IMG/VR virus record: IMGVR_UViG_3300045988_106519
Location: 32,001-96,000 of that record
Source: a virus
DNA length: 64,000 bases
Strand: one strand, 5' to 3'
This document shows positions 36 through 32,107 of the stretch, piece after piece (position 1 is the stretch's first letter; each line of letters opens with the position of its first letter). Under the pieces are notes generated by a model. The model was not told the DNA's origin. It saw nothing but the letters and a program-made list of their open reading frames with translations, and did no database searches. The position numbers were made by a program, and so were the translations under genes.

Positions 36-37
36 AG

Positions 38-111
38 TGGTTGATATGGGACTCAAACCCATACTCTTCCCTTTAGGAGAGGGATGCTTTATTCAATTAA
101 GCTAATCAACC
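38..111 (-). tRNA. tRNA-Arg, anticodon CCU
   Basis: Hand-folded cloverleaf: acceptor GGTTGAT/ATCAACC, D stem GCTT/AAGC, anticodon stem TCCCT/AGGGA with loop CTCCTAA, T stem ATGGG/CCCAT. Atypical features: the D loop lacks GG and the T loop is TTTGAGT. Confidence 0.75.
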
Positions 112-710
112 ATTTTTGCTTTGCCATAATAAGCACTTTTTCCTCTTGGTGCATTTTTATTTCTAGAACCAAAGTTTTTTGTTAATGAATGACAGTTAGG
201 ACATAATACTTGCAAGTTACTTTCTATATTATTTTTAGAATCCCCATCTATGTGGTGAATCTGCAATGGAATTTTATTTGTATATGGATTCACTTCACCC
301 CAACCACATTTTTCACATTTGTAATTATGTTTTTGAAGCAAGTAATTCCTAACGAATGTACTGCAACTATAACCATTTGTTCCATCTATATGTCCTTCTT
401 TCCATTCTTTAATACGTTGTTCTTTTTTATATTTTACTGCACATTCCTCACTACAAAATAATCCTGTGGAACCAGGATATTTAGCAAAAACTTTCCCACA
501 ATATTTACAAATTCTCGTACTTATTTTTCCTTTATTAAATGTCTCTGATGGATTTATTGTTCTTCTTTTAGGCAGATTTATACCAAGTCTTTGAGCAGCT
601 TTTCTGACTGCATGACCTGAGACATTATACATCTTTCCAATTTCATCATAACTTTTTTGTTCTTTATATATTAAATTGAACAAATTATCCTTTTCTGTTT
701 TCCAATCCAT
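102..710 (-). CDS. HNH homing-type endonuclease with an N-terminal HTH-like region
   Basis: C-terminal motif CEKCGW...LQIHHIDGDSKNNIESNLQVLCPNCHS, plus CxxC pairs. The TAG stop overlaps the tRNA-Arg 5' end by 10 nt. Confidence 0.9.
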   Translation of the reverse strand: MDWKTEKDNLFNLIYKEQKSYDEIGKMYNVSGHAVRKAAQRLGINLPKRRTINPSETFNKGKISTRICKYCGKVFAKYPGSTGLFCSEECAVKYKKEQRIKEWKEGHIDGTNGYSCSTFVRNYLLQKHNYKCEKCGWGEVNPYTNKIPLQIHHIDGDSKNNIESNLQVLCPNCHSLTKNFGSRNKNAPRGKSAYYGKAKMVD

Positions 711-20995: not shown

Positions 20996-21379
20996 TTATT
21001 TTACATTACCTAACTTATCTGCCCAAGCTTCTGTGTAAAACCAATTGTATGATTTGTCTGGAGCTATAGTCTTATGTGTCATAGCCCATAGTATACTTGG
21101 AATACCTATTATAATAAGGTATAGTGGTCCGAGATACAAACTCTGCCTTGTATGTCCATACTCATGTTTTATAGTATTCTCAGTTGCTTTTGGAGAAATG
21201 AATATGTAATTTCCAAATGTTACACTTCCTGAAGAATACTTTGTATAAACCTTTATCCCTTTATATTTTGTTATTGCAGGAATCTGATTCTCTACTATCA
21301 AATAGCTCAAATAAATTAGAGCAATAATGTTCTGAGGCAACTGCCAAATGTATTTCAGAACTGACTTTATTCTTTTCAT
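20996..21379 (-). CDS. small membrane protein with an HExxH zincin motif
   Basis: HEYGH motif between hydrophobic segments (IIALIYLSYLIV and LYLIIIGIPSILWA). Confidence 0.55.
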   Translation of the reverse strand: MKRIKSVLKYIWQLPQNIIALIYLSYLIVENQIPAITKYKGIKVYTKYSSGSVTFGNYIFISPKATENTIKHEYGHTRQSLYLGPLYLIIIGIPSILWAMTHKTIAPDKSYNWFYTEAWADKLGNVK

Positions 21380-21387
21380 AGTAATCT

Positions 21388-21855
21388 TTATTTTATTGTT
21401 ATCTCAATATTCTCACCTTTCTTGTATGCAGTATACATTATATTATATAGCTTCAAGAAATAGTCCTTTGACTTTGTAACCATTCCTTTCACATCATTCT
21501 TTCCTACAAGTATACAACCTTCTGTATCTTTGGCTGTGTTTCCTGCATGTATCAGTACACCATCATATCCAGGAACTTTCTCAAGTCTTGGTATTCTTGC
21601 ACCATTACAATTCTTTACATACCAACTACTCTTGCTGTATTTTGGACTAACAATATCCATACTTATCTTATAAGTTCCAGTAGGTATTGCTGTTTCACCA
21701 ACTTTCTTCTTTTTCTTAATCTCTTCAATGGACATACTGCTTGTTAAACTTCTATCTCTATCTTCCAAAGTATTTGAGAAGAATACACCATCAACATATA
21801 ACTTACCAATAGTATAATCCTTTTTTTTCCATTTTCTATCTATCAATATCTTCAT
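21388..21855 (-). CDS. YkuD-fold-like (DUF5675-like) putative cell-wall peptidase / endolysin candidate
   Basis: GKLYVDG.FFSNTLEDRDR...GETAIPTGTYK...LIHAGNTAKDTEGCILVG carries an L,D-transpeptidase-like His...Gly-Cys catalytic pattern. Confidence 0.5.
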   Translation of the reverse strand: MKILIDRKWKKKDYTIGKLYVDGVFFSNTLEDRDRSLTSSMSIEEIKKKKKVGETAIPTGTYKISMDIVSPKYSKSSWYVKNCNGARIPRLEKVPGYDGVLIHAGNTAKDTEGCILVGKNDVKGMVTKSKDYFLKLYNIMYTAYKKGENIEITIK

Positions 21856-21981
21856 ATTATATATGTATTAGTTATAACACAAAGGTACTATTATATGTTT
21901 CTCTATGAAAGTAGTTAAATGAATGTATTAACATGATATAAATGGTATTATTAGGTTATTGTCATGTAAGTCTATTGATTA

Positions 21982-22000
21982 TATCTTTGCAGTACTTAAA
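21982..22000 (+). promoter_or_regulatory. Bacteroidota-type -7 promoter box TATCTTTG, extended as TATCTTTGCAGTACTTAAA
   Basis: Matches the TAnnTTTG consensus. Nearly identical 19-mer at 24555. Lies 10 nt upstream of the ATG at 22010. Confidence 0.5.
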
Positions 22001-22009
22001 GAAAACAAA

Positions 22010-22633
22010 ATGGAAAAGTTAAAGAAATATGTTTGTATTGGAAGTATTGTATTAATGATAATAACAATAATTGTTCTATGTTTTATACTTAAAAGTAAGG
22101 TCAAAACGGAGAATAGATGGAAAGAAGCTATTACTAATGTAAAGTCCTACGAGAATATGTTCAGTGATTCTAAGGACAATAGTATAGCATTCCAATTGAC
22201 TATTGCTCAGTTGAAGCATTCCAATGACTCCATCTTCCAAGAGCTTAATAATACAAGAAAGGAACTGAAGATAAAAGACTCCAAGCTAAAGAGCTTGCAG
22301 CATATATCTTCTAACTTCACAAAATCTGATATTATAATTTTGAAAGACACTGTTTTTAAAAACAAGGGGATTAATATTGATACTCTGTTATCAGATGAAT
22401 GGTATTCTGTGAGGGTTGGTCTAAGATACCCTTCATCTGTAACTGTCACACCAAAATTCAAGAGTGTGAAAACTGTGATAGTATCAACTAAGAAGGAAAC
22501 AGTTAATCCTCCAAAGAGGTTCTTCTTATTCAGATGGTTTCAAAAGAAACACACTGTTCTACATGTGAATGTAGTTGAGAAGAATCCTTATATAGAAAGT
22601 CAGGATAACAGATACGTTGAGATTATTAAGTAA
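22010..22633 (+). CDS. membrane-anchored coiled-coil protein (start trimmed to MEKLKKYV)
   Basis: N-terminal TM segment IGSIVLMIITIIVLCFIL, then a heptad-like region. Has its own promoter and terminator. Confidence 0.6.
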   Translation: MEKLKKYVCIGSIVLMIITIIVLCFILKSKVKTENRWKEAITNVKSYENMFSDSKDNSIAFQLTIAQLKHSNDSIFQELNNTRKELKIKDSKLKSLQHISSNFTKSDIIILKDTVFKNKGINIDTLLSDEWYSVRVGLRYPSSVTVTPKFKSVKTVIVSTKKETVNPPKRFFLFRWFQKKHTVLHVNVVEKNPYIESQDNRYVEIIK

Positions 22634-22725: not shown

Positions 22726-23910
22726 CTATTTGGATTTATGATAGATAAGCTTCTCTATATAAGCAATAACCTTTTCATTGGCTTTATTGATATTGGTATA
22801 ATCCTTTTGTATATAGATGTCAGTAATACTCATATCTGATACATGGTTCAATGCTTCATGTATAGTATACTTATCTATACCAAGCCTGTTTCTTGCTATT
22901 GATGCCCAAGTATGTCTGGCAGAATAGAAATCAAAATGAGGAATACTCAAGGTGTCTGCAATTATATACAGTCCTTTATTTATATGTTTGTTGAAATTAG
23001 CTGCATTGCTATACTTCTTATAGAAGTTAAACACTCTTGAGTCTCCTTTATATTTATCAAAAAGAGGTTTTATTATATTAGGTACTGCTATTTCAATATG
23101 TGCATTATCTATTCTTCTATCTCTTGTCTTTGCTCTGTCATAAGCAAGTACACCATTACTATATGATGTACATTCATATAGATCAACAGAGTTCATACCT
23201 ATAAGACAGAATGATAAAATATAGCAATCCCTTGCCATTCCAACTCTTCTTGTTCCATGAAAGTTAAATAGTTTAATTAGGTTATCAACACTGATAATTC
23301 TATTCTTTGTCATTGATACACTCTTAGGAATGATAAAGCTATTAAATGGATTATTGGTTATTACCTTGTTATCATCCATATTATATTCTCTTATAGCCTC
23401 ATTGAATATATGACGCATACAACCTAAGTATAAAGACTGTGCTCTTGGATGTCCAGTAAGATAATCTTTATAGTTGTTGAGAAGATTATAATTAATATCA
23501 GAGAATAAAAGTGTGTCACTTTTTAGAAATCTGTATAAAGAATTAAGCATAATAGAGTAGTTGCCTTTTCCTTTATTATTTGATTTCTCAACCCACTTTC
23601 TTGTATATTCAAAAAAGTCCAGTGTCTTGACATTACCTGTTAATTGAGAATATATCCATTCAATATCAGCATCTTTATTTCCCAAGCTAGTCTCTATTTC
23701 ATATAACCTATTCTTTAAAGTATTTATAGTGTCTTCAATATTTCTTTTAAGACTATCAGACTTTATCTTTCCTTGTTTTGTTAGGTCACACTCCTTTATA
23801 ACAATATTTGTATGGATTCTCTTTCTTATTCCTTTATGAGATAGTGTTATTGAAACTTTCCTTGTCTTATCTTTTTTAGGTTCTTCTATTTTATATGTGA
23901 TTGTAGCCAT
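22726..23910 (-). CDS. int: tyrosine recombinase / phage integrase (Bacteroidota type)
   Basis: C-terminal catalytic pattern FYSARHTWASIA (R-H-x-x-R context) ... ALNH ... DIYIQKDY (His/Tyr). Has an N-terminal arm-binding-like beta region and sits next to a tRNA-derived sequence. Confidence 0.9.
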   Translation of the reverse strand: MATITYKIEEPKKDKTRKVSITLSHKGIRKRIHTNIVIKECDLTKQGKIKSDSLKRNIEDTINTLKNRLYEIETSLGNKDADIEWIYSQLTGNVKTLDFFEYTRKWVEKSNNKGKGNYSIMLNSLYRFLKSDTLLFSDINYNLLNNYKDYLTGHPRAQSLYLGCMRHIFNEAIREYNMDDNKVITNNPFNSFIIPKSVSMTKNRIISVDNLIKLFNFHGTRRVGMARDCYILSFCLIGMNSVDLYECTSYSNGVLAYDRAKTRDRRIDNAHIEIAVPNIIKPLFDKYKGDSRVFNFYKKYSNAANFNKHINKGLYIIADTLSIPHFDFYSARHTWASIARNRLGIDKYTIHEALNHVSDMSITDIYIQKDYTNINKANEKVIAYIEKLIYHKSK

Positions 23911-23948
23911 AGCAATGTTAACTTATGATTGTCGTTTTATGTCATTAA

Positions 23949-23986
23949 CTGCAATAATTTATATCTATTGAATTAATTCTGCAATA
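23949..23986. repeat. two CTGCAATA repeats left of the tRNA-like core (candidate arm-type sites)
   Basis: CTGCAATA at 23949 and 23979. Confidence 0.4.
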
Positions 23987-24017
23987 TTTTCATCCTTTAA
24001 ATACTATAACTCTCTCT

Positions 24018-24092
24018 GTTTCAATAGCTCAGTTGGATTAGAGCAACAGCCTTCTAAGCTGTGGGTCTTGGGTTCGAACCCCAACGGAATCA
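24018..24092 (+). tRNA. tRNA-Arg(UCU)-derived sequence with a non-pairing 5' acceptor strand; putative attP core
   Basis: D arm, anticodon arm (ACAGC/CTTCTAA/GCTGT), T arm (TTGGG/TTCGAAC/CCCAA) and 3' strand CGGAATC-A are intact. The 5' strand GTTTCAA pairs at only 4 of 7 positions. Confidence 0.6.
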
Positions 24093-24121
24093 CAACGAAA
24101 AAATGCTTCAAATTTGATTGT

Positions 24122-24168
24122 ATCGCTAATAGCTTATTTATCAAGCTGTTAGCGATATTTTTTTATTG
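24122..24168 (+). terminator. rho-independent terminator after the tRNA-like sequence
   Basis: ATCGCTAATAGCT ... AGCTGTTAGCGAT followed by ATTTTTTTTATT. Confidence 0.65.
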
Positions 24169-24247
24169 TATTATATACTAATGTCTATAATTTCTTTTGC
24201 TTATTGAAATTTCTTTGTTATGTATTTAAAGATATGTAATGGGAAGT

Positions 24248-24278
24248 ATTGCAACATTATTGCAATAAAATTGCAATT
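24248..24278. repeat. three ATTGCAA(C/T) repeats phased at 11 bp (operator or arm-type site array)
   Basis: Copies start at 24248, 24259 and 24270. Confidence 0.5.
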
Positions 24279-24554
24279 ATTAATTTAAATAATTGGTAGG
24301 AGTAATTGTACTTCTAAAAATAATAGAAGGCAATGTAAATGTAGAGAAGACTTAACATAGTAAATGTAAATTAATATGATGTAATACGTAAATTCATTAT
24401 TTGAGTTTGTGTGAGTGAATTAATGTATACAAAGGTATATATTATTTGAATAATGTAAGTATAAGTAAATAAGACAAATTAAAATATCTCATTTAAAGTT
24501 TGTTAATATGAAAAGTATTAACAGATTTACTATGCCAATTTAAGAGAAAAATTG

Positions 24555-24573
24555 TATATTTGCAGTACTTAAA
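24555..24573 (+). promoter_or_regulatory. -7 promoter box TATATTTG, extended as TATATTTGCAGTACTTAAA; candidate promoter of the virion-module operon
   Basis: Matches TAnnTTTG. 17 of 19 positions identical to 21982..22000. Confidence 0.5.
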
Positions 24574-24650
24574 CCAACAATTATAAATAACTATAAAATA
24601 GTGTGTTATGAAAGTTGGTTAAAGTAAAACTTTAAGTAAAATCAAATGTT

Positions 24651-24866
24651 ATGGTGGCAATAAAAAAGACAAGAAGCAGGGATGAACTGAGGTGGCAGGC
24701 TGAGAGTGATGCTCAAACAATGGCAACCTATCAAGAAATACTTAGTGATAAGGCAAGAATGAATAGGGCTATTAAGGTAGCAAAATCTCAGGCAGCAGAT
24801 CTTACAAAGAGAGTTAATGCTCTACAGAGTGTATCAAGGACAAAATCATCATCTAAAAGAAAGTAG
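24651..24866 (+). CDS. small basic helical protein
   Basis: ORF track; first gene of the plus-strand block. Confidence 0.6.
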   Translation: MVAIKKTRSRDELRWQAESDAQTMATYQEILSDKARMNRAIKVAKSQAADLTKRVNALQSVSRTKSSSKRK

Positions 24867-24869
24867 ATT

Positions 24870-25058
24870 ATGTGTGAGCAAGAAGGCAAAACTGTACAGA
24901 AAATACAGATGGACTATATACAAGCATCTTCATTAAGAGAGCTTTTGAATAAAGTCAATAGTTATAACAGTGATTATCCTGAATGTGCAATACTGAAGGA
25001 AGATATAGTTGAAATCCTCAAGGAAGAAGAGACATTCATTATGCTTTATTATAGATAA
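24870..25058 (+). CDS. hypothetical protein
   Basis: ORF track. Confidence 0.55.
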   Translation: MCEQEGKTVQKIQMDYIQASSLRELLNKVNSYNSDYPECAILKEDIVEILKEEETFIMLYYR

Positions 25059-25102
25059 TGTAGTATATATAATAATGTGTAACTATCTAATCAGATATAA
25101 GT

Positions 25103-25537
25103 ATGGCAAAGCAAGAGAGTATAAATGAGATGGAACTTGACACAGTGGACTTCTGTTCAAAGTGTTATTCCCTAAAAATAAAGTATGAGGATTCCATTGG
25201 TATGGATTGCTGTGAGGACTGTGGCTGTACTGATTTCAAGACAGCATCTTTTGATGAATGGGAAAAACTGTATAAAGAAAGATACGGTCATAAATATGTA
25301 GAAGAAGTTGGGGACATTAGGAAGTCACCTATATTTCAGATGTCAAATGATAAACTGAAGATAAAGGTTTCTAATGATCCATCATGGAGGGAGATATGCA
25401 GAGCCATGTATCCTGCATTTCCAAATTGGCTCAGTAAGGCAGACTCTATTATACTATTGTTTGCAAAGTTGTATCAAGAAAACAGATTGGATGATTTAAG
25501 AATGGAGCTTATAAACAGAAGTAATAACAAACACTAA
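25103..25537 (+). CDS. zinc-ribbon-containing hypothetical protein
   Basis: CSKC ... CEDCGC. Confidence 0.6.
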   Translation: MAKQESINEMELDTVDFCSKCYSLKIKYEDSIGMDCCEDCGCTDFKTASFDEWEKLYKERYGHKYVEEVGDIRKSPIFQMSNDKLKIKVSNDPSWREICRAMYPAFPNWLSKADSIILLFAKLYQENRLDDLRMELINRSNNKH

Positions 25538-25551
25538 AGGAGGAGAATAAA

Positions 25552-25815
25552 ATGGAAGAGCAGAAGAAACTTACATATGAGCAACTTAATGATGCCTGTA
25601 ATCAGTTATGGCAACAGAACAAGCAGCTTGTAAAGAGAAATAAGGAATTGGAACAGTTTGTTATGAACAAGAGACTTGATTATCTCTTTAAAGTGCTTGA
25701 ATGTAGTAAGGAATTTTCAAGTGATTTTATTGGAAACTGTGCAAGTGAAATTGAGGAAGCAATGACTATTCCTCAAGACATGGAATATAACAGCAAGGAG
25801 GAGAGACATGAATAA
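25552..25815 (+). CDS. coiled-coil hypothetical protein
   Basis: ORF track; SD-like AAGGAGGAG upstream. Confidence 0.6.
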   Translation: MEEQKKLTYEQLNDACNQLWQQNKQLVKRNKELEQFVMNKRLDYLFKVLECSKEFSSDFIGNCASEIEEAMTIPQDMEYNSKEERHE

Positions 25816-26230
25816 TACTGTTAATAAGCAAGGTCTACCAAAGCCAAACAATATAGTGACTATCTCCACTTCTCCAGGTATTGAGTTCTTTAAATGGTGG
25901 TGTATATTCCTCAGACCATTTATAAATCTCACAAATAGAGAGATAGATGTTATAGCCAGCTTCTTAAAGCAAAGATGGGAGTTGTCAAAAAGTATAAGCG
26001 ACCCTACTATTCTTGACAGTATGGTTATGAGTGAAACAATCAAAGGCAAGGTGATAGAGGAATGTCAAATGACACAGCAACACTTCTATGTGGTAATGAG
26101 TAATCTGAGAAAGAACAATATTATAGTAAATAATATCCTTAACCCCAGACTTGTACCAAATATAAGAAAGGATGATAATGGATGTTTTCAGCTACTTATA
26201 CTGTTCAAGGAAAACAAGAAGGCTGTATGA
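25808..26230 (+). CDS. hypothetical protein. Position is compatible with a small terminase or a DNA-binding regulator, but neither is demonstrated.
   Basis: ORF track. LTNREIDVIASFL is an HTH-like segment. Lies upstream of terL. Confidence 0.55.
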   Translation: MNNTVNKQGLPKPNNIVTISTSPGIEFFKWWCIFLRPFINLTNREIDVIASFLKQRWELSKSISDPTILDSMVMSETIKGKVIEECQMTQQHFYVVMSNLRKNNIIVNNILNPRLVPNIRKDDNGCFQLLILFKENKKAV

Positions 26231-26517
26231 CCTATGATGAGATTGTGATTGAAGTATCCAAGAGATTAGGACTCAGTAAAGAATTAGTCAATAAGACTTA
26301 TAAAGCTTATTGGAAATCTGTCAAGGAACACATAGCTTCTTTACCTCTGAAGAAAGATTTGTCAGATGAGGAGTTTATGAAGTTACAACCAAATGTGAAT
26401 ATACCTTCACTTGGTAAGTTCTGTGTCACCCTTGACAGATATAAAGTAATGACTAAAGCATTTAGAAACAAAACAAAAATAAAGGAGAAACAAGATGTTA
26501 CATGTAACAAAGATTAA
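26227..26517 (+). CDS. HU/IHF-like DNA-binding protein (start trimmed to MTYDEIV)
   Basis: MTYDEIVIEVSKRLGLSKELVNKTYKAYWKSVKEHI ... IPSLGKFCV parallels the HU pattern (helix-helix, then GFG.F beta arm). ATGA overlap upstream. Confidence 0.5.
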   Translation: MTYDEIVIEVSKRLGLSKELVNKTYKAYWKSVKEHIASLPLKKDLSDEEFMKLQPNVNIPSLGKFCVTLDRYKVMTKAFRNKTKIKEKQDVTCNKD

Positions 26518-26908
26518 ACCACTTTTTGACCACTTGCTTATTACAGCAGATAGATTTGAAAAGGATATGGTACATAATGGAGTTATCTTGGCAAACAAGG
26601 GAGACTTGAAATTATGGCAGACTGTAGTGGCTGTTGGTTCAGTAGTAAGGGACATCAAGGTAGGAGACAAGGTGATGATTAATTCAAATGATTTTGCTGT
26701 AAAGAAGTATAACAAGAACTCTGTGCAAAATGACTTGGACAACAATCCAGTACTGACATATAACTTCCCATTTGAGACTGTTGATGATGAAAAGGGAAAT
26801 CCAAAAGATTATCTCTATATCTCAGACAGGAATGTAAAATATGTGTTTGAGGGTATAGAGAAAGATGAATCACTGATATTGCCAGGAAAACCAAAGTTGA
26901 TAATATAA
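26495..26908 (+). CDS. GroES/gp31-like co-chaperonin
   Basis: IKPLFDHLLI....E......GVILA........Q.VVAVGS..RDIKVGDKVM follows the Cpn10 pattern. Confidence 0.6.
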   Translation: MLHVTKIKPLFDHLLITADRFEKDMVHNGVILANKGDLKLWQTVVAVGSVVRDIKVGDKVMINSNDFAVKKYNKNSVQNDLDNNPVLTYNFPFETVDDEKGNPKDYLYISDRNVKYVFEGIEKDESLILPGKPKLII

Positions 26909-26925
26909 GAGTAGAAGTTTGCAAT

Positions 26926-26956
26926 AGCCTAAGTTTTAATCGATTTAGGCTTTTTT
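26926..26956 (+). terminator. rho-independent terminator
   Basis: AGCCTAA ... TTAGGCT followed by TTTTT. Confidence 0.55.
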
Positions 26957-26972
26957 AGTTATAGAAAGAAGT

Positions 26973-29228
26973 ATGGAGAACATAAGATTTAACAAGTGTC
27001 AGACACCTTTGGAAGATTTGCATTTAGAGAAATATCCAAAAGAAGTGCAAGAGCAGTGGTGGGACACAATAAATAATGTACCTTTTATTAAATGGATGGT
27101 GTCTGAGGACAGACCATTGGTTTCAGAATTGCCAAGAGATAAGGAAGGCAAGGCAATAATAGACATAACACATCCACCTATTCTTGAGGGAAGTGATTAT
27201 TTCAGACCATCAGCATTGGCATATAAGAAGAACAAAGGAAGATATACAACTCTTAGACCAAATGCTAATCCAAACAGTGACTTTGGCAAGTGGTTGTATG
27301 AAGAGAGGAAGAGAGGATGGAATGGTTACTGCAATCCAAAGACAGGAATGTGGGTGACAGGAGATTACTACTGGATGCTTAACTTCTGCCCAATGCACCT
27401 TGTAGAGAAAAATAGTAATGGAGTAGCAATAAGAACAGTAGCTCATCCAAGGTTTTGGGATGGTCAGTTTCTTATGTCCCATTACCTTAACCAAGGCAGA
27501 ATACATGGACATCATGCTTCAACATTAGCTTCACGAGGAAGAGGAAAGACATCATTTGGTGCAGGACTGCTTTCAAGAAGATGTATAATAGGGGAGTCAG
27601 AGGAAAACTCAAAAGAAGTGCAGTGTATGGTAACAGCGGTGGATAGGACAAAACTGATGGATACTAATATGATACTAAAGGTATTTAAGGATAATCTTGA
27701 TCATTGTGCAAAGTACACACAGTTTGCTTCACACAGACTGAAATCCTCAGACCAAGAGATGGAATGGAAGATGGGATATAAGAAGGCAGGAAGTGAAATA
27801 GAATATGGAAGTAAGAACTCAGTATCAGGAATTATCTCAGGAGTAAATCAGGATAAATTGAATGGTTCACGTGGAGTGTTGTATCTTATTGAAGAGGCAG
27901 GTATTTTTAAGAATCTCCTTAGCATGTATAATATGATTAGACCTTCAGTAGAACAAGGCAATGATGTATTTGGAGAGATATTCTGTTATGGTACAGCAGG
28001 AGATGACCAAAGTGATTTCACTTCATTTGCAGAGATGTTCTATTCTCCAATAGGTTATAACATGGAAGCACTTGACAATGTGTATGATAAGGAAGGTCAG
28101 GGAAGAAAACAATGCTGTTTCTTTTATGGAGCCTATATGAATTATGCAGATGATTGTATAGATGAAGATGGTAATTCAGATATTACAAAGTCATTATTGC
28201 TTATATTGTATGACAGATACAAGACAAAATATGGTTCTATAGATGTGAATACCATTACAAAACGTATATCACAGTATCCTATAGTGCCACAGGAAGCTAT
28301 GATAAGAAGTCATAGTAATGTGTTTCCAGTAACAGAACTTAATGAGAGACTTAATCAGATAGACAATAATCCAGATGAATATGCAGACACTTATGTGGGA
28401 AAGCTTGTGCAGGATAATAAGACAGGAGAAGTGAAGTTTAATCCTACTGTAGATATTCCGATAAGAGATTTTCCTACCAAAGATAACAAAGTGACTGGAG
28501 CTATTGAAATATTTGAGATGCCAAAGAAAGGTAGTGATGGTAAGGTACCCTTTGGCAGGTATATATGTTCTTGTGACCCTTATGACAGTGATGTTTCAAA
28601 TACAATGTCATTAGGTTCTATCTTTATATTGGACTTATGGACAGACATGTTAGTAGCAGAATATACTGGAAGACCGCCCTTTGCAGAAGACTTCTATGAA
28701 ATATGTAGGTTGATATGTTTGTTTTATAATTGTAGGTGTATGTATGAGCAGAATATTATGGGAATGTTTTCATACTTTAGTTCACATAATTCAACACATC
28801 TATTAGCAGAAACACCAGAATATCTTGTGCAGAGAAATATGATAGGAGGTATAGGATATGGTAATAAGGCAGTAGGAATTAGAGCTACCACACCTATTAT
28901 AAATGGTGCTTTCAAGATGATACAGACATGGTTGAGGAAACCAGTAATAATTATAAAGACAGATGCAGAAGGAAACAATATAGAAGTGACAATACCAAAT
29001 CTCTATAGGATAAAGAATAGAGCATTGCTGAAAGAACTTGTGCTATGGAATCCACAGGGAAACTTTGATAGAGTGATGAGCCTTGTGCAGTTGATGTTAT
29101 ATAGAGAAGAGAAACTTGTGCTTGGTCACGGTGACTTGAGGAGTTCAGAGACAGTTAGCAGTGGAATGGAGAATGATGATTATTGGGAGAAGAACTATCC
29201 AGGAAAAAAGAAAGTAATGGTGTGGTAA
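26973..29228 (+). CDS. terL: terminase large subunit
   Basis: Walker A ASRGRGKTS, Walker B VLYLIEEAG, and a C-terminal nuclease-like acidic motif CSCDPYDSD. The 751-aa size is typical of crAss-like TerL. Confidence 0.85.
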   Translation: MENIRFNKCQTPLEDLHLEKYPKEVQEQWWDTINNVPFIKWMVSEDRPLVSELPRDKEGKAIIDITHPPILEGSDYFRPSALAYKKNKGRYTTLRPNANPNSDFGKWLYEERKRGWNGYCNPKTGMWVTGDYYWMLNFCPMHLVEKNSNGVAIRTVAHPRFWDGQFLMSHYLNQGRIHGHHASTLASRGRGKTSFGAGLLSRRCIIGESEENSKEVQCMVTAVDRTKLMDTNMILKVFKDNLDHCAKYTQFASHRLKSSDQEMEWKMGYKKAGSEIEYGSKNSVSGIISGVNQDKLNGSRGVLYLIEEAGIFKNLLSMYNMIRPSVEQGNDVFGEIFCYGTAGDDQSDFTSFAEMFYSPIGYNMEALDNVYDKEGQGRKQCCFFYGAYMNYADDCIDEDGNSDITKSLLLILYDRYKTKYGSIDVNTITKRISQYPIVPQEAMIRSHSNVFPVTELNERLNQIDNNPDEYADTYVGKLVQDNKTGEVKFNPTVDIPIRDFPTKDNKVTGAIEIFEMPKKGSDGKVPFGRYICSCDPYDSDVSNTMSLGSIFILDLWTDMLVAEYTGRPPFAEDFYEICRLICLFYNCRCMYEQNIMGMFSYFSSHNSTHLLAETPEYLVQRNMIGGIGYGNKAVGIRATTPIINGAFKMIQTWLRKPVIIIKTDAEGNNIEVTIPNLYRIKNRALLKELVLWNPQGNFDRVMSLVQLMLYREEKLVLGHGDLRSSETVSSGMENDDYWEKNYPGKKKVMVW

Positions 29229-29352
29229 AGTAACGAGTTGTATAAGAGGATTTTTTATGAAGGCTTAGAGAAAAAATAAGGAATAATATTAAGCATTGAT
29301 GTTTTTGTACTTTTGTGGAAAAGAAGAATGTAGAACTAAAGAGAAGAAAAGT

Positions 29353-30540
29353 ATGGAAGCATTAAGTTTTGACAATATTTTGGGTGAGAATGAGATTGAT
29401 ACCCTATTCACAGACCCAGAAGATACTACTGCTCAAGAAGAGCAAGACAACTCAGAAGAAGAGAATAATGATAATCCTCTTGATTCTGATAAGGAAAAGA
29501 ATGAGAAAGAAACTACTGAGGTTGTTGACCCTGAGACCATGTTTGAAGAAGAGACACCAGAGAGCGTAAGTAGTGGAAAAGATAAAGAAGGTAAGGAAGA
29601 TACTGTCACTGACGGGGAAGCAGATGGCACTTCTCCAAACAATAACTTCTACTCTTCCATTGCCAACGCCTTGGCTGTGGATGGTATCTTTCCTAACCTT
29701 GATGATGAGACAGTGAAGAAGGCAGTTGATGCTGAGTCTTTCAGTGATTTGATAGAAGCAGAAATCAATGCTAGGTTTGATGAAAAACAACAAAGGATTT
29801 CAAAGGCTCTTGAGAATGGAGTAGAGCCAACTGATATTAGGAAGTATGAGAGTACCCTTGACTACATCAACAAGATAACAGATGCAGCTATTGCTGAAGA
29901 GAGTGAGAAGGGAGAGCAATTGAGGTATAATCTTATCTATCAAGACTTCTTGAATAAAGGAATGTCAGCAGACAAGGCAAAGAAGTACACAGATAGAACT
30001 ATTAATGCAGGAACAGATGTTGAAGATGCTAAGGAAGCCTTGCTAAGTAACAAGGAATACTTTAGTAATGAGTACAACAAACTACTTCAAGAGGCACAGC
30101 AGCAAGCAGATGAGGAAAAAGCAGATAGAGCAAAGCAGGCAAAGCAGTTGCAGACATCTCTTTTGAAAGACAAGAATCTGTTTGGTAATATGGAAATCAG
30201 CAATGATATTAGGAAGAAAGCCTTTGAAACAATATCCAAACCAGTGTATAAAGACCCAGAGACAGGAGATTATTTAACAGCTCTTCAGAAGTATGAGATG
30301 GAGCATAAAGCAGATCTTCTTAAATACACAGGTCTCATCTTTGCAATGACCAATGGCTTCAAGGACTTTGATTCCTTTGCCAAAGGTAAGGTTAAGAAAG
30401 AAATGAAAAAAGGTCTTAGAGATTTAGAGAAAACCCTGAACAACACATCAAGGTCGAAGGATGGTAACCTAAGAATGATAACCAATCAGAGGGAAGATCC
30501 AGACTCCTTTATTAGTAAGGGGATGAAGCTTGATTTGTAA
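29353..30540 (+). CDS. acidic, all-helical protein; scaffolding-protein candidate (start trimmed to MEALSF)
   Basis: D/E-rich N-terminus and long predicted helices or coiled coil. Lies directly upstream of the 507-aa capsid/portal candidate. Confidence 0.45.
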   Translation: MEALSFDNILGENEIDTLFTDPEDTTAQEEQDNSEEENNDNPLDSDKEKNEKETTEVVDPETMFEEETPESVSSGKDKEGKEDTVTDGEADGTSPNNNFYSSIANALAVDGIFPNLDDETVKKAVDAESFSDLIEAEINARFDEKQQRISKALENGVEPTDIRKYESTLDYINKITDAAIAEESEKGEQLRYNLIYQDFLNKGMSADKAKKYTDRTINAGTDVEDAKEALLSNKEYFSNEYNKLLQEAQQQADEEKADRAKQAKQLQTSLLKDKNLFGNMEISNDIRKKAFETISKPVYKDPETGDYLTALQKYEMEHKADLLKYTGLIFAMTNGFKDFDSFAKGKVKKEMKKGLRDLEKTLNNTSRSKDGNLRMITNQREDPDSFISKGMKLDL

Positions 30541-30583
30541 GACCATGAAAAACAAATTTATAAATGCTTAATGTAAATAAAAA

Positions 30584-32107
30584 ATGGCCGGAAAATTAGG
30601 TAAATTCCAGAAGCAGACATTTAGCCATTGGAAGGGTACAACTAAGGCAAATCATCTTGGTGGTATTTTCCAGATGCAGCCACAGAGGGCAACATCCTTG
30701 ATGGTACAGCTGCTTGCTTGGCATAAAGGTAAGACCCTTGAAACATTTTTGTCACAATTTCCAACAAAGTCTTTTGACAATGATGATGAGTACACATGGG
30801 ATATTTGTGGTAGTTCATCAAGGAACATTCCATTGGTAGAGGCAAGGGATGCAGATGGTATAGATGTATCAGCAACTTCACGTAATGGAGCAAATGTTGG
30901 TGTGAATGGTGAGCCATTCTACTTGGTGTTTGCAGAAGATTGGTTTGCTGATGGTGAGGTAATTGTTGGTGAGCGCAATGAAGTATATCCTATTAGGGTG
31001 CTTGCAGATGGTAGGAATGAGGGAACCAACACTGTATACAAGGTAGAGTTGATGGGTGGTATCACCTCTGGTATTCCAGTAGAAGAGCTGCTTGCAGGAA
31101 AGAGGTTCTCAGTTGACTTTGCCCCAGTAGAAAAGGACTTCTCTCGTAAGGTTGGTGATGTACGCTTCTCAAGTCCTATAGCAATGAGGAATGAGTTTAC
31201 AACCATTCGTATTCATACCAAAATAGCAGGCTCAATGATTAATAAGAAAGTAGCCTTTGGTATTCCTATTGTAAAAGAGACAAATGGTCGCTATGTGAAG
31301 GACACTGTAAACATGTGGATGCACTATGAGCAGTGGGAGCTTGAACAGCAGTGGAGTGATTATAAAAACAATATGCTTGCTTATGGTCGCTCAAATAGAA
31401 ATATGAATGGTGAGTACCTTAATATTGGTAAGAGTGGTGAGGTAATTCGTATGGGAGCAGGTCTTTATGAGCAGATGGAGGCAGCTAATACTTTTACTTA
31501 TAACACCTTCTCATTGAAACTTATTGAAGATGCTCTCTATGAGTTATCAGCAGCAAAGCTTGGTATGGAAGATCGTACATTTGTAATCCAGACAGGTGAG
31601 CGAGGAGCTATTCAGTTCCATAAGGCAGTGCTTAACACTGTAAGTGGTTGGAAAGCATTTACAATTAATGGAGACCAGATAGATATGGTAAGGAAGGTAC
31701 AGTCGCCATTGCATAAGAATGCTTTGTCAGCAGGCTTCCAGTTTGTAGAGTTCCAAGCACCAAATGGTGTAACTGTACAAATTAAGGTTGATTCTCGATA
31801 TGATGACCCAGTGCGTAATAAGATTATGCATCCAAATGGAGGACCTGCTTATTCTTATAGGTACGACATCTTTGACATGGGTAACATGGACCAGCCAAAC
31901 ATCTTTAAGTGTGGTGTAAAGGGTATGGAAGGTGACTTGACATCTTATGAGTGGGGTCTAAGAAATCCATTTACAGGTCAGATGGGTAATCCAAATGCTT
32001 CACATGATGAGGATTCAGCAACCGTCCACAAGATGACAACAATGGGCATATGTGTGCTTGATCCAAAAAGGACATTGAGTTTGATACCAGCTATTTTGGT
32101 AGCTTAA
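30584..32107 (+). CDS. major head component: major capsid protein candidate (portal not excluded)
   Basis: 507 aa of mixed alpha/beta sequence following the scaffold-like gene. No diagnostic motif is visible by eye. Confidence 0.45.
   Translation: MAGKLGKFQKQTFSHWKGTTKANHLGGIFQMQPQRATSLMVQLLAWHKGKTLETFLSQFPTKSFDNDDEYTWDICGSSSRNIPLVEARDADGIDVSATSRNGANVGVNGEPFYLVFAEDWFADGEVIVGERNEVYPIRVLADGRNEGTNTVYKVELMGGITSGIPVEELLAGKRFSVDFAPVEKDFSRKVGDVRFSSPIAMRNEFTTIRIHTKIAGSMINKKVAFGIPIVKETNGRYVKDTVNMWMHYEQWELEQQWSDYKNNMLAYGRSNRNMNGEYLNIGKSGEVIRMGAGLYEQMEAANTFTYNTFSLKLIEDALYELSAAKLGMEDRTFVIQTGERGAIQFHKAVLNTVSGWKAFTINGDQIDMVRKVQSPLHKNALSAGFQFVEFQAPNGVTVQIKVDSRYDDPVRNKIMHPNGGPAYSYRYDIFDMGNMDQPNIFKCGVKGMEGDLTSYEWGLRNPFTGQMGNPNASHDEDSATVHKMTTMGICVLDPKRTLSLIPAILVA

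Follow-up and report, generated by a model that had tools for sequence, protein, structure and literature searches.

The stretch of viral DNA considered here (64,000 nt, positions 32,001–96,000 of IMG/VR record IMGVR_UViG_3300045988_106519; hereafter 'the window') very probably contains, at 23911–24650, the phage attachment site (attP) of a temperate Steigviridae-like crAss phage, with the gene for its tyrosine integrase alongside (22726–23910). An attP had been suggested in an earlier note on this DNA, which drew attention to an integrase gene lying next to a copy of tRNA-Arg(UCU), and this interpretation is now supported by contigs that represent the free phage site, the empty bacterial site (attB) and both of the hybrid junctions (attL and attR) of an integrated prophage. 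The usual description of crAss-like phages is that they cannot integrate; here the contigs show a crAss phage inserted in a tRNA-Arg gene of Prevotella.

Free, empty and hybrid junctions

The recombining core appears to be a 69-bp sequence (24025–24093, plus strand) that corresponds to positions 8–76 of the host tRNA-Arg(UCU) gene plus one further base. Over this stretch attP and attB are identical without interruption, and four of the next seven bases to the left match as well. The free site is found in the window and in contigs L002/L066, L082, L086, L087 and L089. Three contigs with the empty site (L094, L095 and L096), which were found via the PepSY_TM protein, have the gene order yidC, pyrG, DUF3078, trmO, DUF6078, PepSY_TM, tRNA-Arg(UCU), and then exactly the host flank seen at attR. 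The seven attL contigs (L075/L090, L084, L085, L088, L091, L092 and L179), found via the first genes on the P' side of the core, run from the host PepSY_TM gene through a TAcctTTG box (in agreement with the consensus for Bacteroidota promoters) and a complete tRNA gene, with the 5' acceptor strand GGTTCCG, into P' and the crAss capsid genes. In the six attR contigs (L003, L004, L005, L062, L079 and L081), the integrase gene and the P side are followed by GTTTCAA, the core and a GC-richer host flank starting ctttgtgaccccatgcgggtcac. The flanks at attL and attR are exactly reciprocal. ENA assemblies with these sites include ERZ27287438, ERZ27287269 and ERZ28621273 for attL, ERZ27956831 for attR, and ERZ27295818 and ERZ28618637 for attP.

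Of the two 5' acceptor strands, GTTTCAA is retained with the phage at attR, and GGTTCCG stands in its place at attL. The host strand had been predicted as GATTCCG, and in this detail the prediction was wrong, the actual strand having a G.U pair at 2–71. The intact tRNA scores 66.9 bits (Rfam) at attB and equally at attL, where the target gene is rebuilt, compared with 50.1 bits for the copy at attP and attR. A search for integrated copies in which the 5' strand was restored had been proposed beforehand; it gave a positive result, with attB, attL and attR contigs recovered from several samples and assemblers.

A whole prophage is present in contig IMGVR_UViG_3300045988_117470 (111,450 nt), which has attL at its start and attR at its end. 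Its first 67 nt are host flank, after which come the intact tRNA and P', in a region 95% identical to window positions 24025–31656, and it closes with the integrase gene, GTTTCAA plus the core, and 158 nt of the host B' sequence. The host flank is chromosomal in character (yidC, pyrG and trmO; GC about 0.45 vs about 0.31 for the phage), and the proteins encoded there share clusters (90% identity or higher) with WP_308267028.1 and WP_308267027.1, which both bear the name Prevotella sp. Among some 20 long contigs carrying the neighbouring gene for a 144-amino-acid protein, about 15 were of the attL type and about four of the attP type, in a tally that is approximate, as it includes matches judged merely 'similar'.

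The GC-rich flank at attR includes a second integrase gene and a tape measure gene, and was considered as a possible sign of chimerism. This could be ruled out, for the empty-site contigs show the same DNA downstream of the host tRNA gene. Searching GenBank phage records with the flank yielded no name for it. Just downstream of the target tRNA there is an integrase-bearing element with a tape measure gene (L005, 1–5800; L079, 1–9800; L094, 9610–10341; GC 45–54%), which is complete in some strains and cut down to a 5' integrase remnant in others. From this, the tRNA-Arg gene looks like an integration hotspot with elements in tandem.

Organization of the arms

The P arm (23911–24017) fills the gap from the start codon of the integrase gene to the core, and the same sequence lies beside host B' DNA in attR contigs; it includes two copies of CTGCAATA, located by a repeat search of the arms at 23949–23956 and 23979–23986. 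The P' arm (24094–24650) comes after the complete host tRNA in attL contigs and leads into the structural operon. As had been claimed, a terminator follows the tRNA segment (24120–24168, plus strand): it comprises a hairpin of 16 pairs (24120–24158; one found vs 0.2 expected) and a T run. A hairpin and T run come directly after the core in every related P' arm shown, which supports the idea that the phage terminator replaces that of the host; the host B' flank likewise opens with a hairpin. Between the end of the core and a conserved P' sequence, gcttcaaattt (L088, 6560–6600), 10–15 nt vary by strain, the variants being aacgaaaaaat, aaatagacaaaaat, aactaaaaaat and tttgaacatta, one of which starts with the four bases of the host B' flank.

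Further into P', at 24248–24276, are three copies of ATTGCAA, beginning at 24248, 24259 and 24270 and thus spaced at 11 bp, so that both the left-hand pair of repeats and the phased right-hand triple reported earlier are where they were said to be. ATTGCAA is not enriched across the window (22 matches vs 18.7 expected), and no second triple phased at 11 bp occurs in the 64 kb; such a triple arose in just two of 20,000 Markov shuffles of the arms. In each related attP there are repeats phased at 11 bp in P', and P has one or two copies. In relatives, the P' motif is AATTGCCGCAAAA instead of ATTGCAA, in two to four tandem units with the same 11-bp period, and ATTGCCGCAAA, the counterpart in related attP sites, is found at the place matching the CTGCAATA repeats of the window's P arm. 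We infer that the ATTGCAA and CTGCAATA repeats are candidate arm-type sites for the N-terminal domain of the integrase, a role for which they had already been put forward and which the related attP sites support.

The repeats sit in a 740-bp divergent intergenic region, where promoters are to be expected, and ATTGCAAT is palindromic, like many operators; moreover, the window integrase has no match to Arm-DNA-bind_5 (PF17293) in Pfam at E 0.01. Could they, then, be operators at which some regulator acts on divergent early and structural promoters, instead of arm-type sites? We consider this unlikely, though it is the alternative that fares best. The repeats occur on both sides of the core in every related attP, and this holds even in a sister group of phages (described below) in which the integrase is the only gene in common with the window. 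In addition, the window group and its relatives have different motifs, and the N-terminus of the integrase is the most diverged part of the protein (residues 1–90 are 59% identical between the window and a group whose integrases are 79% identical to the window's, compared with 82–86% for the rest of the protein).

The integrase

The integrase gene (22726–23910, minus strand) is an open reading frame (ORF) of 394 codons, transcribed away from the tRNA-like core. Its product matches Phage_int_SAM_5 (PF13102; E 1.4e-12), the sole Pfam model to pass E 0.01, and residues 274–370 match PHROG_1, 'integrase' (E 4.8e-15). The claim that a full-length integrase is encoded next to the tRNA-like copy therefore stands; the gene had also been said to end 108 nt from that copy, and here the adjacency is right, but the end of the gene that faces the tRNA is its start codon and the spacing is 107 nt. 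Its homologues number over 1,200, and the best 120 listed are 89–98% identical. The SARH, LNH and DIY motifs of the window integrase correspond in alignment to VARH, LGH and QIY in an integrase that does match PF00589, and ARH, NH and IY are invariant in the eight relatives aligned, including the integrase of Bacteroides phage Versailles. The protein is best regarded as a member of a divergent branch of the Bacteroidota-type tyrosine recombinases.

A model for integration and excision

In the model that we favour, which the sequences of the junctions support, the integrase would recombine the 69-bp core with the identical stretch of the Prevotella tRNA-Arg(UCU) gene, strand exchange taking place somewhere inside 24025–24093. 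At attL, the promoter and the seven 5' bases GGTTCCG would stay with the host, the remainder of the tRNA being identical whichever partner supplied it. The rebuilt tRNA would be followed by the P' arm, with the intrinsic terminator in place of the displaced host terminator, and then by the crAss structural operon. At attR, the integrase gene would be left next to a copy that has no promoter and a faulty acceptor stem (GTTTCAA plus the core), followed by the downstream DNA of the host. The crossover may well be in or near the anticodon stem-loop (ACAGC CTTCTAA GCTGT, 24046–24062, plus strand), since in the sister group identity to the tRNA extends no further 5' than position 26 or 22, right before this stem; in tRNA integration sites, crossovers are commonly associated with a 7-nt loop between inverted stem arms. 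Excision would regenerate attP, after which virus could be produced, and there would presumably be a repressor and a directionality factor, either of an unrecognised type or encoded in the approximately 47 kb of the genome that lie outside the window.

Several observations weigh against this model. The evidence throughout comes from metagenome assemblies. The integrase has no match to the Pfam catalytic-domain model PF00589 at E 0.01, NCBIfam gives it no match and a PDB sequence search finds no relative, and Asn occupies the usual position of the first catalytic Arg (IntDOT also has a residue other than Arg here). Among 53 small ORFs of the window, Pfam and PHROGs revealed no repressor, excisionase, HTH (helix-turn-helix), S24, Xis or anti-repressor family, in line with the earlier statement that no CI-like repressor is visible in the window, and there is no homologue in the window of the S24 or HTH proteins of the sister group; these scans covered the window, about 47 kb of the genome lying beyond it. 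The integrase gene is on the side of the core away from the rebuilt tRNA, the more usual layout being a tRNA gene followed directly by the integrase gene. Lastly, because the core is identical in both partners, the crossover cannot be placed within it.

Do these features mean that the module is a relic, with the integrated copies old and defective and the free phage no longer able to integrate or excise? The failure to find an excisionase or repressor among the small window ORFs would fit, as would the divergence of an integrase that does not match PF00589, yet we think this very improbable: over the 7.6 kb compared, the integrated copy and the window are 95% identical, and the integrated genome is of full length; free and integrated forms are both present in many samples; the integrase is full length, the 120 best homologues listed being 89–98% identical; and the core matches the host exactly in most contigs.

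The tRNA-like element

ARAGORN calls a tRNA-Arg(tct) at 24018–24093, and Rfam one at 24018–24092. Tools of this kind had been proposed as a test of whether the element is a functional tRNA, and both do call it a tRNA, but such calls amount to detection of a pattern and not to functional evidence. Both structures bear out the count of four pairs out of seven in the acceptor stem (GTTTCAA vs CGGAATC), the non-pairs being 2–71 (U.U), 6–67 (A.G) and 7–66 (A.C). To call the element 5'-truncated, as was done in the earlier note, is not appropriate: all 76 positions are present, and only the first seven have diverged. These seven (24018–24024, plus strand) make up a phage-specific, decayed 5' acceptor strand outside the recombining core.

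An integrase search of IMG/VR yielded 64 loci. The core is 100% identical to that of the window in most of them, with one substitution each in two, and this identity holds even where the integrases fall to 67–79% identity with the window's. In the window group and in the group with 78–79% identical integrases, the core consists of tRNA positions 8–76 and points away from the integrase gene; in the group at 67–70%, only positions 26–76 or 22–76 are present, in the same direction as the integrase gene. Among relatives the 5' strand has drifted (GTTTCAA, GTTTCAG, GTTACAG, ATTACAG), while the 3' strand is essentially fixed, with no compensation. The tRNA-like stretch thus appears to be constrained by the sequence of the host and not by tRNA function. 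A substitution inside the core (CGGGATC for CGGAATC, at tRNA position 69) is present in an attP of the 78% group, L006/L067 (contig 103006 = CAAGQJ010000060.1); the same 111-kb phage contig has been deposited in a metagenome-assembled genome (MAG) labelled 'Bacilli bacterium', most likely through a binning error.

Many lytic phages have a tRNA-Arg(TCT), and the window has another, intact tRNA-Arg(CCT) gene at 37–111, so that, given the calls by ARAGORN and Rfam, one might take the element to be a working phage tRNA-Arg(UCU) that serves AGA codons in an AT-rich phage, its proximity to the integrase gene being incidental. The chance of this seems slighter still. The acceptor stem lacks three of its seven pairs, including two neighbouring ones at its base, and the 5' strand varies among relatives without a compensating change in the 3' strand; positions 8–76 are identical to the host gene instead of having diverged as phage tRNAs do, and the sister group retains only the 3' two-thirds; no Bacteroidota-type promoter box resembling the TAcctTTG of the host is visible upstream; and the junction contigs show the element as the core of recombination. 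Least probable of all is that the hybrid junctions are assembly chimeras joined across the 69-bp repeat, with no real integration behind them: many IMG/VR contigs do break inside or just past the core, as is expected of a repeat shared with host DNA, and assemblers evidently do treat it as one, but several junction contigs have MEGAHIT k141 or k119 names, which we read as word lengths exceeding the repeat, the reciprocal attL and attR recur in at least 11 ENA assemblies as well as several IMG/VR contigs, one contig has both junctions around a full-length phage, and a second crAss-like group has a free and integrated pair at a target without a tRNA repeat.

Integrases and targets in related phages

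The group with 67–70% integrase identity, which we refer to as the sister group (L008–L065, for example L032, 4441–8109), shares with the window phage the tRNA-Arg(UCU) target and the 3' boundary of the core, and also has the terminator and the 11-bp phased repeats. It differs in that its contigs are of 100–130-kb phages, in its shorter core with the opposite relation to the integrase gene, and in having an S24 repressor and an HTH_3 protein flanking attP. Outside the integrase, no similarity was detected between sister-group contigs and the window, and no sister-group contig was among the 80 best capsid matches. A sister-group phage is integrated in a contig of a Segatella copri MAG (L069). 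This suggests that the integrase module moves between phages of Prevotellaceae. The scan of genome contigs that produced L069 otherwise gave contigs from MAGs whose taxon labels disagree (Bacilli, Lachnospiraceae, Waltera and others), which we read as mis-binned phage; L069 was the only informative one. Another sister-group contig (L012/L013, in IMGVR_UViG_3300045988_093521, 118.9 kb) starts as an attL-type junction and ends as an attP-type one with a second copy of the integrase gene, and may represent either tandem prophage copies or an assembly path leading from the host into a circular form of the phage.

There are crAss-like phages that resemble the window phage in other genes (DUF5675 protein 72–76% identical, capsid protein about 82% identical where known) and have other tyrosine integrases in the same slot. 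In a second type (L196, 2479–4142; L192, 1104–2767; L205–L212), the integrase has Arm-DNA-bind_5, SAM_5 and PF00589 domains, and its gene is preceded by an ORF of 66–71 amino acids that corresponds to the C-terminal 52 or so residues of a protein of the GGGtGRT family (E 4e-30); in NCBI nr, such ORFs go by the name 'GGGtGRT protein [Crassvirales sp.]'. The free form has the order portal ... fragment, integrase, DUF5675. In the integrated form, host genes (IleRS, MgsA or SmpB) are followed by a full-length GGGtGRT gene of 337 codons, the integrase gene and DUF5675. Phages of this second type evidently insert into the 3' end of a host protein-coding gene. Beside the integrase slot of L192 (2912–4117) is an inserted transposase gene of the Mutator family (E 4e-100). 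A third integrase type (L193, 2753–3928; also L194), with the same three domains (Arm-DNA-bind_5, SAM_5 and PF00589), is found at this position in a further group of related crAss-like phages, with no tRNA detected nearby.

The existence of free and integrated forms with different integrase types indicates that integrase–attP cassettes are swapped at one position in the genome, and that at least two crAss-like groups integrate. Assembled contigs of both kinds show this integration for two types of cassette, those targeting tRNA-Arg(UCU) and the GGGtGRT gene. Beyond these, we incline, with some reserve, to the view that the whole Prevotella-associated Steigviridae-like branch is truly temperate, with exchangeable integrase–attP cassettes in a single slot between the structural operon and the lysis genes, and with lysogeny regulators that current profile libraries do not recognise. 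Integration modules look routine in the branch to which the window phage belongs.

The phage and its genome

The virion module of the window is of the crAss type by Pfam (Crass_capsid, E 2.2e-196; CrAss_Ring_3_4, twice; crAss_AuxCP; crAss_CARGO2), so that the crAss-like virion architecture previously attributed to it is confirmed in the window itself. The capsid protein is 66–67% identical to those of ΦcrAss001, IAS virus and Mahstovirus, all of them Steigviridae. Provisionally, then, the phage may be described as a Steigviridae-like crAss phage with a genome of about 111–113 kb, its family placement being based on comparison of the capsid protein. A search with 6 kb of DNA around the site revealed no close relative among GenBank phage records; the matches obtained were only to tRNA-Arg genes of unrelated phages, such as the complete tRNA in MT835482, which has no integrase nearby. 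Likewise, integrase matches in the GenBank phage set included none in records named crAss-like or Crassvirales.

The integrase–attP module is housed at the switch between the early (leftward) and structural (rightward) genes, and the GC skew flips near 24 kb. It adjoins probable lysis genes, which determine a DUF5675 protein with a YkuD-like fold and a DUF6549-like membrane protein. The whole lysis-like cassette beside the integrase gene (20996–22633) comprises the gene for the DUF5675 protein (in which there is weak similarity to YkuD and Tlde1), that for the DUF6549-like protein, and that for a membrane protein of 127 amino acids with an HEYGH sequence, and it is syntenic across all the related crAss-like contigs. 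At the far left of the window, the tRNA-Arg(CCT) gene already mentioned (37–111, minus strand) has a perfect acceptor stem and scores 66.1 bits, and is probably a genuine phage tRNA gene; an ORF for an HNH endonuclease (102–710, minus strand) overlaps it by about 10 nt.

Lysogeny and persistence in crAss-like phages

That lysogeny is rarely documented for large crAss-like gut podophages, as the earlier note remarked, is also the message of the literature, in which lysogeny of crAss-like phages is regarded as absent or undocumented (PMC10136315; bioRxiv 10.64898/2026.08.21.746148). The prototypic crAssphage is non-integrating and behaves as a phage-plasmid (PMC10983915), the crAssBcn isolates are without lysogeny genes (PMC10354031), and a 2026 preprint has Crassvirales persisting 'without stable lysogenic integration' (10.64898/2026.08.21.746148). 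There have been hints of integration: Parabacteroides has epsilon-like prophages that are incomplete (PMC11054128), pig MAGs have yielded 12 crAss-like 'prophages' (PMC12454387) and, at the level of catalogues, integrases are enriched in mouse Intestiviridae and Zeta, in a study that calls Steigviridae integrase-poor (PMC13503771); in a passage of another paper, Fujimoto 2020 is cited for 'a temperate crAss-like phage' (PMC8776839). No report of att sites in a crAss-like phage came to light, in a literature coverage that was incomplete, so an earlier description of this lineage is possible.

How crAss-like phages persist abundantly for years is a standing question, for which phase variation, a carrier state and, in the case of the prototypic crAssphage, life as a phage-plasmid have been offered as explanations (PMC10136315, PMC10983915); true lysogeny lacks support according to reviews and recent preprints. 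The results presented here comprise a base-resolved set of attP, attB, attL and attR for a crAss-type phage in Prevotella, together with a related group that has a different integrase and target, and from these it seems likely that chromosomal lysogeny is an option for at least one branch of Crassvirales. About three quarters of the long contigs found were of the integrated form, and the crAss signal in bulk metagenomes is to that extent open to reinterpretation. There may also be a practical aspect. Prevotella and Segatella are hard to manipulate genetically, and the integrase–attP pair is a possible integration tool for them.

Comparison with known systems

Among characterised phages, ΦcrAss001 (Kehishuvirus primarius) and other Steigviridae resemble the window phage in their capsid protein, in the Crass_capsid, CrAss_Ring_3_4, crAss_AuxCP and crAss_CARGO2 matches, and in their divergent early and structural modules. 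They differ in having Bacteroides, not Prevotella, as host, and the Steigviridae isolates are reported to have no lysogeny genes (PMC10354031, PMC10136315).

Among cultured phages, Bacteroides phage Versailles (ON453897.1) has the closest integrase, annotated as such, which is 36.5% identical over its full length, has the ARH, NH and IY motifs in common with the window integrase, and is likewise encoded about 100 nt from a tRNA-Arg gene; Versailles, however, is a 58-kb phage, and its tRNA-Arg(CCT) gene is complete and in the same direction as its integrase gene. Recombinases of the IntDOT/NBU type (Arm-DNA-bind_5, Phage_int_SAM_5 and Phage_integrase) share the SAM_5 core-binding domain with the window integrase, which differs from them in reaching neither PF00589 nor PF17293 at the threshold used.

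The most general likeness is to the temperate phages and islands that integrate into tRNA genes according to the Campbell model; P4, P22, HP1 and mycobacteriophage L5 are examples in which a tyrosine integrase brings about insertion into a tRNA gene. As in such elements, the integrase gene is beside attP, attP holds a 3' part of the tRNA so that the gene is rebuilt at attL, there are repeated sites in the arms, and a displaced partial copy is found at attR; for the window phage, all four junctions have been recovered. It differs from them in its unusually long block of identity (tRNA positions 8–76), in having its integrase gene at the tRNA-distal end of the prophage, in that no directionality factor or repressor was recognised among the 53 small ORFs of the window, and in being a podophage of the crAss type, about 111 kb in size. 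The mechanism is a classical, textbook one; the surprise is the group of phages that carries it.

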